Assembly: GCA_002787405.1 (NCBI GenBank)
Contig: PCWQ01000007.1
Coordinates: forward strand, 166,250-230,249
DNA length: 64,000 nt
Direction of reading: 5' to 3'
From: Candidatus Komeilibacteria bacterium CG11_big_fil_rev_8_21_14_0_20_36_20
GTDB lineage: Bacteria > Patescibacteriota > Patescibacteriia > UBA1558 > GWA2-36-10
A model generated the notes under the pieces. That model made no database searches, was not told the DNA's origin, and saw only the letters and a program-made list of their open reading frames with translations. Made by a program: the position numbers and the translations under genes. Shown here one piece after another: positions 23,099 to 62,604 of this stretch; within the stretch, counting starts at the first letter, position 1, and each line of letters begins with the position of its first letter.

Positions 23099-23172
23099 CA
23101 GCTAAATTATAACATTTTTCAGTGTTTTAAAAAAGAATACACCCTCTAATCCTGTGCTAATCGCACAGAATT

Positions 23173-23223
23173 TTCTCCCCCTAAATTAGGGGGAGATGCC
23201 CCTGCCTGCCGGCAGGCAGGCAG
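23173..23223. promoter_or_regulatory. pair of GC-rich perfect palindromes in a divergent intergenic region
   Basis: TCTCCCCC-taaatta-GGGGGAGA (23173-23195) and the perfect 20-bp palindrome CCTGCCTGCCGGCAGGCAGG (23200-23219) continuing into (CAGG)n. Followed by TTGACA (23243) and a putative -10 TATGTT. Confidence 0.5.
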
Positions 23224-23325
23224 GCATAAGACAGAGGGGGTAATTGACAAAAATTAAAAAATTCCTTATGTTTATTTAGTTAAATTGAATATAGTACCTA
23301 TAACAAATGTGGAGGTTTATTTAAA

Positions 23326-24746: not shown

Positions 24747-25001
24747 ATGAAACTTATTGACCTCTTAGGATATACGGCCGGAATTTTAGTAGTTATTTCT
24801 TTACTACCGCAAACCATCAAAAGCTGGAAAACAAAATTGACTAGAGATTTGTCTTTATGGAGATATATTATTTATATTGTTAGATTGATTCTTTGGATCA
24901 CTTATGCTGCAATTATTAAAAATGGTCCTGTGGCCGTAATGAATAGTATAGGTCTAATATTAGCAAGTTCTATTCTTTATCTTAAAATAAGATATAAATA
25001 A
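24747..25001 (+). CDS. SemiSWEET (PQ-loop) sugar transporter
   Basis: 84 aa with 3 TM helices and the PQ-loop motif ISLLPQTIKSWKTKLTRDLS. Architecture is similar to characterised bacterial SemiSWEETs. Starts 4 nt after the SDR gene. Confidence 0.7.
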   Translation: MKLIDLLGYTAGILVVISLLPQTIKSWKTKLTRDLSLWRYIIYIVRLILWITYAAIIKNGPVAVMNSIGLILASSILYLKIRYK

Positions 25002-25036
25002 ATGTTATAAAAAAGCGCCCCGCTCAGCGGGGCGCT
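25001..25036 (+). terminator. GC-rich hairpin terminator
   Basis: AAGCGCCCCGC-tca-GCGGGGCGCTT (25003-25027), then TTAAATAT. Confidence 0.55.
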
Positions 25037-25184
25037 TTAAATATCTAAACCTTAAAAAAACAATGAGGAGACTATTGACAAAAACTATATTTTATACTTA
25101 AATAATAGACCGAGTTATTTAACAATGGGATAAATTAATAATCATGCCAACAGGCCAACTCCCGGACACGGGAAGGAGATTAAA

Positions 25185-33841: not shown

Positions 33842-34130
33842 TTTGTTGACTTCAGTAATTAATAGTAAGTAAAAATTATTTTAACTTAAAAATCTCTCTT
33901 TGACAAATCCTTAATCAGACTAAAAAAATAAAGAATAAAGAATCTGCCACCAGTTTTTTTTCTTTCTTTGATCAGCTCTAGTACGACGATTCTTGTGCCA
34001 ATAACTGGGCACTATAAAAATTTTGTCTAATTTCTTCTTCATCTCGTTAGAAATTTAATATTCATTTTACTTTTGTCCTATTAGAAATTAAGTGTTGCAA
34101 TTTCTAACGGGACTCATATTTTTAAAATTT

Positions 34131-34817: not shown

Positions 34818-34897
34818 ATCTCCCTCCTTCAAGATAAATAATTTATTATTAAAATAACAGTTTAGATCTTTCTATCACTATTAATATTGTTTGTCAA

Positions 34898-34930
34898 TAA
34901 AATAAAAACTCCCCCGCGTTGTGGGGGAAT
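34898..34930 (-). terminator. intrinsic terminator after the 34948..35481 gene
   Basis: Minus strand TTCCCCCAC-aacgc-GGGGGAG followed by TTTTTATTTT. Confidence 0.75.
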
Positions 34931-59900: not shown

Positions 59901-61688
59901 TTATCGCTGTAATTTATGAACCTCTTTATTTAATAGATTAATTTTATGAATTAAAACATCTTGTTGGGCAGTGTCCCTACTTAACTCAGCTTGGCGCAAT
60001 TGCTGAATTAATTTTTGTCTCTCTTGACCCAAAAATCTATTTTTTATATTAAAAATAATATTTAGAAAATCAGTCTCCAGCTCGCGATCACTAGAATTGC
60101 TGTAATTACTCTCGCCGGACAATGATAACTTAATCCAATCCGACCTCTCTTCATCATTCAATTCAGGATAATCTATAAAATGAGTTAAATGCTGATGCTT
60201 AGTATAATAAATTATAACCTTACTGTAAAGGGGCTGCAAGCTAGGAGAAATTATTTCTGGCTCAATTTCAGCAATGGCTTTGATTAAATAAACTGGCGAA
60301 TAAAAAATAAGGGCTAATAAATGTTCGCTAGCCAAACACAGAGGATCCTTCTTTTCTTCGGTGGTTTTAATGAATTCAGATTCTCGGTTATCTAAAAACG
60401 ATTTTGCCCCTATCAAGTCCTGTTGTAAAATCTCCAAAGGAAGTTGTAATTTGTCAGCCAATAATTTCAAATAATGCGCTTGCTCTACCTTGCTTTTTAA
60501 AAATTTGATAATGGGCAATAATTTTCTGACCGCAATTTTCTTATGGTCAGAGCGTGATAGGTCTACCCCAAACATAATTCGACGAAAATAATAATCCATG
60601 ACCGGAATTGAATTTTTAATGGCCTCTCGCCAACTTGGCTGGTCTTCTTTAATTATATCAGCCGGATCTTTACCTTTGGGTAAAACTAAAATCTTTAAAT
60701 TTAAATCTTCTTTCCAACCAAGAGCAATACTTCTAAAAACAGCCTGGGAACCAGCTGCATCGCCGTCAAAGGCCAAAATGACATTTTCAGTATATCGCTT
60801 AATCAATTTAACGTGCTGACTGGTTAAAGCTGTTCCGGAAACAGCCACCACATTTTTGGTGCCAGCTTGAAAAGCGGCGATAGCGTCCATGTTGCCTTCC
60901 ACAATAATCAAATATTTTTTCTGCCGAATGGCTGTTCTAGCTAAATGCCAGCCATAAAGAACTTTGCTCTTATCATAAATAACCGTCTGCGGACTATTGA
61001 TATACTTACCGCCAAAATCCTCCTCGTCATAAGCAATGCCGGTCAGAGTGCGGGAAGTAAAAGCCACTATTCGCCCCTGTAAATCACCAATAGGGAACAT
61101 CAGTCGCTTACGAAAACGATCAATATAACCGGAACCCTCCTTCTTTTTCAAAATTAAACCGGCCTGAAAAATTTCTTCATCTTTAAACCCTTGCTTAAGT
61201 AAATAATGATACAACTCGTCCCAACCCTCTCCGGAAAGACCAAGCTGCCAAATATTAATGCTCTCGGCAATAATTTTTCTCTTACTTAAATAATCAAAAA
61301 CTTTGCGAGTCACTTCATTCTTTTGCTGCAACTTGTTTTGATAAAACTGAACAGCCGCTTTATTAACTTCATACAAACGGCTGTAATCTTCCCTGGGTGA
61401 AGATTGATAACCACTCAAAGTAACATTAGCTTTTGAAGCCAGCAATCTCAAAGTTTCCGCAAAACTGATACCCTCATGCTCTTGTACAAAACTAATTAAA
61501 TCCCCTCCCTTACTGCAACCAAAACAATGCCAAATCTGCTTTTCCCGAGAAACCATAAAGCTGGGTGTTTTTTCATTATGAAAAGGGCAGCGAGCTTTAA
61601 AATTTCCCCCTGTTTGTTTTAACGGCAGATAACCAGAAATAACATCCACGATATCTAATTTACTTTTGATTTCCTCAATGTTATCCAT
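59901..61688 (-). CDS. dnaG: DNA primase
   Basis: 595 aa with a zinc-binding N-terminus (CPFHNEKTPSF ... CFGC) and TOPRIM (VIVEGNMDAIA). Classical dnaG-rpoD operon. Confidence 0.93.
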   Translation of the reverse strand: MDNIEEIKSKLDIVDVISGYLPLKQTGGNFKARCPFHNEKTPSFMVSREKQIWHCFGCSKGGDLISFVQEHEGISFAETLRLLASKANVTLSGYQSSPREDYSRLYEVNKAAVQFYQNKLQQKNEVTRKVFDYLSKRKIIAESINIWQLGLSGEGWDELYHYLLKQGFKDEEIFQAGLILKKKEGSGYIDRFRKRLMFPIGDLQGRIVAFTSRTLTGIAYDEEDFGGKYINSPQTVIYDKSKVLYGWHLARTAIRQKKYLIIVEGNMDAIAAFQAGTKNVVAVSGTALTSQHVKLIKRYTENVILAFDGDAAGSQAVFRSIALGWKEDLNLKILVLPKGKDPADIIKEDQPSWREAIKNSIPVMDYYFRRIMFGVDLSRSDHKKIAVRKLLPIIKFLKSKVEQAHYLKLLADKLQLPLEILQQDLIGAKSFLDNRESEFIKTTEEKKDPLCLASEHLLALIFYSPVYLIKAIAEIEPEIISPSLQPLYSKVIIYYTKHQHLTHFIDYPELNDEERSDWIKLSLSGESNYSNSSDRELETDFLNIIFNIKNRFLGQERQKLIQQLRQAELSRDTAQQDVLIHKINLLNKEVHKLQR

Positions 61689-61721: not shown

Positions 61722-61790
61722 AAAAAGAAAAACCCCGCTAGTTTTTCTCTAAATAACATTGCTGTTATAAGATTAAACTTACGCGGGGTA
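61722..61790 (-). terminator. intrinsic terminator of the ncRNA unit
   Basis: Minus strand CCCCGC ... GCGGGG stem with a long loop, followed by TTTTTCTTTTTG. Preceded by the perfect hairpin GGTTGTTG-acaa-CAACAACC (61797-61816). Confidence 0.6.
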
Positions 61791-61825
61791 TAGATTGTGG
61801 TTGTTGTCAACAACCTAAATTAGAT

Positions 61826-62062
61826 GAGCTATTTAGAGAGGCCCGGGTTGAGATAGGAATTTCCTTTTTTCGTGGGAAAGCACTACCCGTAAATTAAACC
61901 CTGCGGGAAGGATTGTTGTTCTATGCGCATAGAACAACCCTGATTGTTAAGCACAATCAAACTGTTATTAAGTATCCGCACTCAATCCTCTGATTTTCGC
62001 TATGCCGATTCGCTACTCATAAGAAAAGATTCTACCCGTTACCTTCGGACTCTAAATAGCTC
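61826..62062 (-). ncRNA. structured non-coding RNA core of unknown family (RNase P-sized transcription unit)
   Basis: Perfect 13-bp terminal helix GAGCTATTTAGAG (61827-39) / CTCTAAATAGCTC (62050-62). Internal perfect hairpins TTGTTCTATGCGCATAGAACAA and GATTGTTAAGCACAATC. Helix GAGGATTG/CAATCCTT. No ORF, and a local GC rise. Flanked by a promoter and a terminator. Confidence 0.55.
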
Positions 62063-62093
62063 AAAATTTTATTATAAAGATCAACGTTTACAC

Positions 62094-62122
62094 ATCTTAT
62101 TATACTTTTAAAATTCTGTCAA
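62094..62122 (-). promoter_or_regulatory. sigma70-like promoter (TTGACA-N17-TAAGAT; alternative TATAAT at N12) for the ncRNA
   Basis: Minus strand has a perfect -35 TTGACA (62122-62117), -10 TAAGAT (62099-62094), and an overlapping perfect TATAAT (62104-62099). Confidence 0.5.
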
Positions 62123-62133
62123 TAGAATAAAAA

Positions 62134-62604
62134 TTAGCTAATATTAGCTAATTTTCTTTCATGCTCTATTAACCACTTTTTTCTCCACAGGCCACCAGCA
62201 TAACCAATTAACTGACCATTACTACCAATAACCCGATGGCAAGGGATAATAATGGGCAGTTTATTTTTATTTACTGCTTGACCAACTGCCCGACCGGCCT
62301 TGAATTGGCCAATGGCTGTAGCTAAATCCTGATAAGCCATGATACTACTATAAGGCACTCTTAATAAGTTCTGCCAGACTTTTTGCTGAAAGTTTGTGCC
62401 TTGAATTTGAAAATTAATATTAAACTTCTGACGCCGGCCTTGAAAATACTCCGTCAATTGCTGGCAACATTTTTTAAGTAAAGAATTAACTCTGACCGCC
62501 GCCTTCTTCTGCTTAACAAAATTAATAGCTATAATATTTTTATCTATAGCTATAATTTCCAACCAACCAATTGGTGATTGGTAATATATTTTGTAATTTG
62601 GCAT
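62134..62604 (-). CDS. ogt: methylated-DNA--protein-cysteine methyltransferase
   Basis: 156 aa with the active-site motif IIIPCHRVIG. Confidence 0.88.
   Translation of the reverse strand: MPNYKIYYQSPIGWLEIIAIDKNIIAINFVKQKKAAVRVNSLLKKCCQQLTEYFQGRRQKFNINFQIQGTNFQQKVWQNLLRVPYSSIMAYQDLATAIGQFKAGRAVGQAVNKNKLPIIIPCHRVIGSNGQLIGYAGGLWRKKWLIEHERKLANIS

Follow-up and report, generated by a model that had tools for sequence, protein, structure and literature searches.

In the window, that is, the whole 64,000-nt stretch of DNA that was analyzed, the minus strand carries ogt (62604-62134), a spacer of approximately 445-446 nt, dnaG (61688-59901), and then rpoD. The question raised by this locus is whether the spacer encodes a structured RNA and, if so, of which kind. 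The preliminary description, made from the letters alone, had offered two answers, namely, an extremely reduced RNase P RNA and an undescribed structured RNA. The spacer was found to hold a unit of approximately 360 nt with its own promoter-like site, a strongly folding core, and a terminator-like end. The observation of this unit is real and non-random. The first answer was rejected, while the second may survive as an orphan, represented by one sequence and its single-sequence folding. Accordingly, the unit is tentatively read, with somewhat less than an even chance, as a lineage-specific, independently transcribed, structured small RNA gene that belongs to no known family and occurs in one Komeilibacteria-like species.

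Layout and transcription signals

The ogt product was confirmed to contain both Ogt domains, and the GC content of the whole ogt-dnaG spacer was 35%. The upstream edge of the insertion was marked by an AT-rich perfect palindrome of 26 bp (62130-62155), which spans the ogt stop codon. On the minus strand, the consensus -35 TTGACA and the -10 TAAGAT that had been claimed previously were present at 62122-62094 with a spacing of 17 nt, and a T/A-rich tract precedes them. The overlapping TATAAT reported with them is also present, but it lies only 12 nt from the -35 and thus is not a usable -10. When both strands of the window were counted, the strict TTGACA-type promoter pattern occurred only eight times, and most of these sites precede a gene or a tRNA. 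Transcription from this promoter-like site would be predicted to start near 62087, with a short AU-rich 5' leader (approximately 25 nt, 62087-62063) before the closing helix of the core. Because the promoter lies outside the core bounded by inverted repeats, the insert of approximately 338 nt cannot be an inverted-repeat element alone.

The tract upstream of the unit promoter resembled the promoter at 34908-34842. This minus-strand segment (34842-34908), the promoter region of a 98-aa ORF, was 75% identical over 69 nt to the promoter region of the unit (TTTTTATT-TATTGACA...), and the two may thus have in common a strong-promoter design in which a T/A tract lies upstream.

At the other end of the unit, a hairpin and a CCCCGC...GCGGGG terminator with a U-run had been placed approximately 35 nt before the dnaG ATG. 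Such a hairpin was found at 61789-61732 with a TTTTTCTTTTT run. The whole feature, an extended terminator-like hairpin ACCCCGC...GCGGGGU (57 nt) and then UUUUUCUUUUU, extends over 61789-61722 on the minus strand and folds at -22.8 kcal/mol (z -4.98). The U-run stops at 61722, 33 nt before the ATG at 61688. Owing to its long loop, this hairpin was not flagged by a simple terminator scan; in relatives, the same position is occupied by a GC hairpin and a T-run. Within the terminator, 10 nt of the 5' arm of the closing helix are repeated (UAUUUAGAGA, 61755-61746).

The 33 nt between the U-run and dnaG are not empty, as they hold a conserved dnaG promoter (TTGACT-17-TAAGAT, 61723-61695, minus strand) that flanks the unit from outside. 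Its -35 overlaps the end of the U-run, its -10 (TAAGAT) lies approximately 6-7 nt before the ATG, and there is no Shine-Dalgarno sequence. Since the -10 is so close to the ATG, the dnaG mRNA is apparently leaderless. The same module, TTGACTAAA-N13-(C)TAAGAT/TAATAT, directly precedes dnaG in relatives too. As dnaG has its own conserved promoter and an apparently leaderless start after the terminator, the unit would not be needed as a dnaG leader. The leaderless-type promoter was also recognized at the loci L008, L009, L011, L014, L016, L018, L019, and L098, and in most cases it is fused with the T-run of the terminator before it.

Predicted fold and coding potential

The 237-nt core (61826-62062, minus strand) was confirmed to be closed by the perfect 13-bp long-range helix described earlier, which becomes 14 bp when a flanking U-A pair is counted. 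The arms of this perfect inverted repeat (61825-61838 and 62050-62063) are 211 nt apart and pair with a probability of approximately 1.0. The terminal-repeat ends of the core are TGAGCTATTTAGAG; the arms of the 13-bp helix are GAGCUAUUUAGAG on the 5' side (62050-62062, pair probability 0.97-1.0) and CUCUAAAUAGCUC on the 3' side (61826-61838). The helix is predicted to continue as a rod, in which the 5' strands AGGU and CGGGU (62034-62044, where the first copy of ACGGGUAG lies) pair with the 3' strands ACCCG-G-GCCU (61839-61848) at probabilities of 0.93-0.99. The perfect hairpins named in the preliminary description were recovered at 61941-61959 (7 bp, UGAUUGU-GCUUA-ACAAUCA, pair probability 0.95-0.98), at 61915-61938 (a 24-nt palindrome, GUUGUUCUAUGC/GCAUAGAACAAC, approximately 0.85), and at 61799-61815, between the core and the terminator (GGUUGUUG-A-CAACAACC, which is GGUUGUUGACAACAACC). 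In the case of the 8-bp helix GAGGAUUG/CAAUCCUU, the strands exist, but they include a G-U pair and reach a pair probability of merely 0.14-0.31. Similarly, the duplicated ACGGGTAG does occur in two copies, but at least two copies were also obtained in 9 of 100 shuffles of the window. The firm part of the modeled fold would thus be an interrupted 22-bp terminal rod (13 + 4 + 5 bp) with two hairpins; the interior was branched in both the MFE and the centroid structure of the core, and this branched remainder is uncertain.

Nearly all helices of the unit are perfectly Watson-Crick paired, and its palindromes are perfect, two of them having no loop. Two GTTGTT..AACAAC palindromes, one of which is 61915-61938, lie within 140 nt of each other in the unit, while 0.11 would be expected in 64 kb.

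On the minus strand, the 401-nt stretch folded at -111.8 kcal/mol (z -5.73 against shuffles) and the core at -73.5 kcal/mol (z -3.91), and no shuffle was as stable in either case. The plus strand of the same stretch reached -104.1 kcal/mol (z -4.94). The advantage of the minus strand comes from a few G-U-dependent pairs, and a U-run follows the last hairpin on this strand only. The stability of the core exceeded that of 240-nt windows from the same genome, matched for GC content, by only approximately 2 sd. A raised local GC over a background of roughly 33% had also been claimed; the GC content of the core (42.6%) is indeed higher, but that of the window is 35.9%, not 33%. Gene-free spacers elsewhere in the window had GC contents of 23-36%.

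The claim that no ORF exceeds 40 aa did not hold, as a 55-aa ORF with a TTG start was found on the plus strand (61944-62111); this ORF had no Pfam domain and no homologue. The six-frame translation of the region gave no match at E<=10 against 5.8 billion proteins (searched as clusters), and the region is therefore not a gene remnant. A pseudogene test of the spacer against the ORFs of relatives also found nothing. No hydrophobic small ORF was present in the region, that is, no ORF of at least 15 aa had a 15-residue hydropathy window above 1.2, and a type I toxin mRNA or a small membrane-protein gene was rejected on this ground. A retron non-coding RNA was rejected because no reverse transcriptase occurs within 12 kb, the neighbors being ogt and dnaG.

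Comparison with known RNA families

The Rfam searches covered 64 kb and, on both strands, 651 nt and 261 nt, at the gathering threshold and at E<=10, the latter corresponding to approximately 11-15 bits. Over the 64 kb, five tRNAs elsewhere in the window passed the gathering thresholds, and the remaining matches were at chance level. In the unit, no family was matched at E<=10, including the RNase P, 6S, tmRNA, SRP, and riboswitch models that the preliminary description had singled out; searches of the unit for SRP RNA, tmRNA (ARAGORN), riboswitches, and ribozymes likewise gave no match.

The reading as an extremely reduced RNase P RNA had drawn on two strings, AGUCCG toward the 5' end and AACCCGG toward the 3' end, which loosely recall P4 beside a P1-like helix. 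The terminal helix of the unit also joins its ends as in bacterial RNase P RNA (RF00010/RF00011), and diverged forms are known in CPR bacteria, in the phylum of the host (PMC8172020). Such diverged CPR RNase P RNAs are detectable with RF00010 at lowered thresholds and keep many conserved features (PMC8172020, Lui et al.), and the unit shows neither property. No RNase P model of any type was matched at E<=10 on the 261 nt. With E. coli M1 RNA as the source of the reference strings, the best matches to CR-I to CR-V in the unit had 3-7 mismatches of 13-15 positions, including 4-6 mismatches for CR-I and CR-V and 6 of 14 for CR-II and CR-III. CR-I (GGAAAGUCCGGGC-like) and CR-V (ACAGAACCCGGCUUA-like) are taken here to form P4 of RNase P with one bulged U. 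In the unit, AGUCCG and AACCCGG cannot build a continuous P4, as 4 additional nt (GCCU), which also stand between these strands and the closing helix, would lie opposite the bulged U. The AACCCGG block belongs to the 3' strands of the rod extension (61839-61848), and the supposed P4 strands are predicted to pair otherwise, as AGGU/GCCU and CGGGU/ACCCG in the terminal rod, with probabilities of 0.93-0.99. P2 and P3 are absent, as there is no sequence between the closing helix and the P4-like string, no specificity domain was found in the unit, and the core of 237 nt is shorter than bacterial RNase P RNA. Moreover, an essential RNA would be neither restricted to one species nor inserted in a variable spacer. 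Because the unit obtained no covariance-model score and lacks the conserved blocks, RNase P RNA was rejected, and its probability is considered to be close to nil.

Distribution of the unit in relatives

Judging from its DnaG, the window belongs to a Komeilibacteria-like population of Patescibacteria that was sampled at Crystal Geyser-type sites (GCA_002773245.1 and GCA_002788435.1, together with several metagenome contigs). Using blastn and nhmmer with the 446-nt spacer against 87 loci of relatives, the spacer was recovered at 100% identity in seven contigs, and nothing beyond these identical copies was found. When the DnaG 90% cluster was searched for strain variants, only a variant with two SNPs in dnaG was obtained, and its element was identical over the shared 161 nt. 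All recovered copies of the unit are thus identical, with no sequence variation in which compensatory changes could appear. In the two independent assemblies of the variant strain (L091 and L092), the contigs start at the same base inside the element, window position 61849 (AACCCGGG); this break may be due to low coverage or to a repeat or palindrome that disrupts the assembly graph.

The DnaG identity of the closest relatives is just 58-67%, and the next-closest DnaG among approximately 15 billion proteins is 67% identical. The gap between ogt and dnaG was 20-90 nt in L095/L096 (20 nt), L008, L013, L015, L020, L021, L024, and L025, and these short gaps contain no more than the TTGACTAAA...TAAGAT promoter and a GC hairpin followed by a T-run. 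Other lineages have unrelated inserts at this spacer. The spacers of L014 (2656-3000) and L098 (3784-4000) contain genes for single-helix membrane peptides of 55 and 38 aa, respectively, each with a good ribosome-binding site, and that of L012 (2475-2912) contains a 145-aa ORF without Pfam domains. Since the gaps are short in relatives and other inserts occur elsewhere, the approximately 338 nt comprising the promoter, the core, and the hairpin are judged from these comparisons to be a species-specific insertion in a variable spacer.

The preliminary description had held that absence from close relatives would speak against the element. The unit was absent from the same locus in the locus sequences of 84 relatives, that is, from every relative examined. 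A covariance model of the core was searched against 637 kb and four closer loci (approximately 670 kb of relatives), and only short hairpins matching the closing helix were obtained. The best match (23 bits) was a 76-nt perfect-stem hairpin before dnaG in the Falkowbacteria contig L078 (2851-2926), which is built of repeated TTAACGGG units and has the strings UAUUUAG and UAACGGGU in common with the rod of the unit. It was unique to its contig and, judged coincidental, was rejected as a homologue. Nothing relevant was returned by blastn against phage and plasmid collections, and four exact-pattern scans of viral contigs found nothing. When metagenome contigs were scanned for the terminal-repeat pair, the source locus was not recovered, so that this collection lacks the source genome; the three matches obtained were unrelated and due to chance, and the scan is thus uninformative on copy number. 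Within the 64-kb window, no second copy of the terminal repeat was found, even when two mismatches were allowed. TAACGGG was rejected as a shared dnaG operator, as it precedes dnaG in only 4 of 80 loci.

A separate family of elements was recognized by terminal inverted repeats of 12-13 nt, CCCGTTAGAAAT(T)...(A)ATTTCTAACGGG, around an AT-rich interior. Its sites are 34043-34111 of the window (minus strand), L010 356-434, L012 817-919, L017 2885-2988, L019 2886-2988, and L026 6759-6795, and their genomic locations differ among the several Komeilibacteria-like genomes that have them. The element separates the dnaG promoter from the ATG of dnaG in L010, L017, and L019, and an ATG usually follows the 3' arm within the next 0-15 nt. 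This family may be MITE-like or a conserved 5'-UTR hairpin.

Proposed small RNA gene and alternative readings

If the unit is a small RNA gene, its RNA would start near 62087 from the sigma-70-type promoter at 62122-62094. The 5' and 3' ends of the core would zip into the 22-bp interrupted rod around an interior that is branched and includes two or more perfect hairpins, and transcription would stop at the extended hairpin and U-run (61789-61722). The same terminator could shield the leaderless dnaG promoter behind it from read-through. The rod may protect the ends or serve as an RNase III-type processing stalk that yields a stable core of approximately 240 nt. This core would act in trans; a role as a scaffold or in binding proteins is the most plausible, more so than cis regulation of dnaG. 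Transcription, processing, and any trans function are what we infer from the layout and the modeled fold.

Several features argue for this reading. The promoter combines a perfect -35 with a 17-nt spacing, in a pattern that is rare in the window and otherwise stands before genes and a tRNA, and it lies outside the repeats. The unit reached a z value of -5.7 and the core one of -3.9, and pair probabilities were 0.85-1.0 in the rod and in two hairpins. The GC content of the core was 42.6% versus 23-36% in the other gene-free spacers, and the minus strand, which alone has the U-run, folds better than the plus strand (-111.8 versus -104.1 kcal/mol). In addition, dnaG is served by a conserved promoter of its own after the terminator and apparently starts without a leader, no frame looks coding or gave a Pfam hit, and no Rfam family was matched. 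However, no homologue was obtained in the searches, and consequently neither covariation nor any other sign that the structure is under selection was seen. All copies are identical, both strands fold well, and the core is only approximately 2 sd more stable than GC-matched windows of the same genome. The near-perfect Watson-Crick palindromes also count against it, as old structured RNAs are less typically all-perfect palindromes than young or DNA-level palindromes are. The claim of an undescribed structured RNA stands in part: the promoter, the terminator, the GC-rich core, and the fold are in agreement with it, but the unit does not pass the test of conservation set in the preliminary description, as it was absent from every relative examined. 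A narrower version would make the unit the first sampled member of an undescribed RNA class, a stable RNA of approximately 240 nt that is catalytic or binds proteins. One Komeilibacteria lineage would have acquired it as a self-contained promoter-RNA-terminator cassette, with relatives unseen only for want of this genome and its close kin in the searched collections; this version is considered unlikely.

The main rival to the small RNA gene is a selfish or decaying palindromic insertion, MITE-like or REP/BIME-like, with 14-bp terminal inverted repeats, incidental transcription, and no RNA function; it is held to be possible, though doubtful. Like MITE/REP/BIME elements, the unit is intergenic, folds strongly, measures approximately 240 bp, has perfect 14-bp terminal repeats 211 nt apart, contains several perfect internal palindromes, and is restricted to one lineage, in a spacer that is variable and has received other inserts in L014, L098, and L012. 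An inverted-repeat family, CCCGTTAGAAAT, is dispersed in the clade, including before dnaG in L010, L017, and L019, and the two variant-strain assemblies break inside the unit at 61849. Unlike such elements, the unit shows no target-site duplication, its flanks AAAATTT and TCTAATT being without an adjacent direct repeat; a 9-nt repeat (D3) is not adjacent to the unit ends and is at chance level. Neither the 64-kb window nor the loci of the 84 relatives held a second copy, no transposase gene is nearby, and the core is GC-enriched rather than AT-rich. Moreover, approximately 100 nt of the insert, including the strong promoter and a hairpin, lie outside the repeats. The perfect palindromes, two of them without a loop, together with the two GTTGTT..AACAAC copies within 140 nt versus 0.11 expected in 64 kb, would also agree with a DNA-level protein-binding region of operators or recombination sites. 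This is regarded as very unlikely, as no regulator or recombinase gene is adjacent, the GTTGTT..AACAAC motif was not found before dnaG in relatives, and the helix spaced by 211 nt within a promoter-terminator frame is better explained by RNA.

Two further readings would keep the unit as an RNA and connect it to the downstream genes. As a cis-acting leader or attenuator, an aptamer-like domain in transcripts that come from the unit promoter or from ogt would tune dnaG-rpoD by regulated read-through of the terminator. The arrangement of a promoter, a P1-closed domain, and a terminator just before the operon is riboswitch-like, and the UAUUUAGAGA copy at 61755-61746 could take the place of the 5' arm in pairing with the 3' arm of the closing helix. 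However, repeats of 9-10 nt such as UAUUUAGAGA are expected by chance in 450 nt, and the terminator stem could form alongside the alternative pairing, so that there is no mutual exclusion. The dnaG promoter follows the terminator, with the start 7 nt past its -10, and as dnaG has no Shine-Dalgarno sequence and its own leaderless promoter, read-through transcripts would be translated poorly. A riboswitch was rejected, as no riboswitch or leader family was matched in Rfam at E<=10 and the domain is absent in all examined relatives with the same operon; a cis leader in general is judged quite unlikely. In the other reading, the unit would be a 6S-like RNA and would sequester the sigma-70 holoenzyme by imitating promoter DNA, which would fit the proximity of rpoD, two genes downstream. 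The long closing stem, the own promoter, and a predicted stable RNA of approximately 240 nt are consistent with it. 6S RNA itself was rejected, since no Rfam 6S model was matched at E<=10 and the predicted interior is branched with hairpins and is not a rod with a large central bubble. Further, 6S RNA is normally conserved across related genomes, whereas the unit was not found at the locus in any relative. A 6S-like role is thus accorded a very small probability.

Relation to known small RNA genes

The preferred reading, a lineage-specific small RNA gene, resembles orphan bacterial small RNA genes in that the unit lies in a long spacer, exceeds neighboring spacers in GC content, has a promoter and a terminator, folds stably, and has no coding signal and no known family. 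The unit differs from them in being the single representative, without even a recurring motif, and in the unusual perfection of its helices. At approximately 360 nt, it is also longer than most base-pairing sRNAs. Surveys of GC-rich intergenic regions leave low-ranking small RNA candidates unnamed (PMC6429828, PMC8632094). The case for a function of the unit comes from single-sequence folding alone, which ranks it below candidates with comparative support.

The main value of the result is negative and practical, namely, that the reading as a minimal RNase P is wrong and that the unit has no detectable relatives. Should the unit prove to be a working RNA, it would mean that a bacterium whose genome is very small had acquired and retained a large cassette for a structured RNA, at a variable site beside core replication and transcription genes, and the unit would be a starting point for finding CPR-specific RNAs.

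Other structured spacers in the window

The spacer at 23136-23242 was more structured than the core of the unit and is the strongest-folding segment of the window (z -7.0 on the plus strand and -7.8 on the minus strand). It has three GC-rich perfect hairpins inside a CCCUCU/AGAGGG helix, lies between divergently oriented genes, and gave no Rfam match. At 24984-25074 (minus strand), sub-threshold Rfam matches to the rimP leader (33.9 bits) and ncS54 (28.3 bits) were obtained. They cover a perfect 13-bp GC hairpin, AAAGCGCCCCGCT/AGCGGGGCGCTTT, which is most likely a plain intrinsic terminator.
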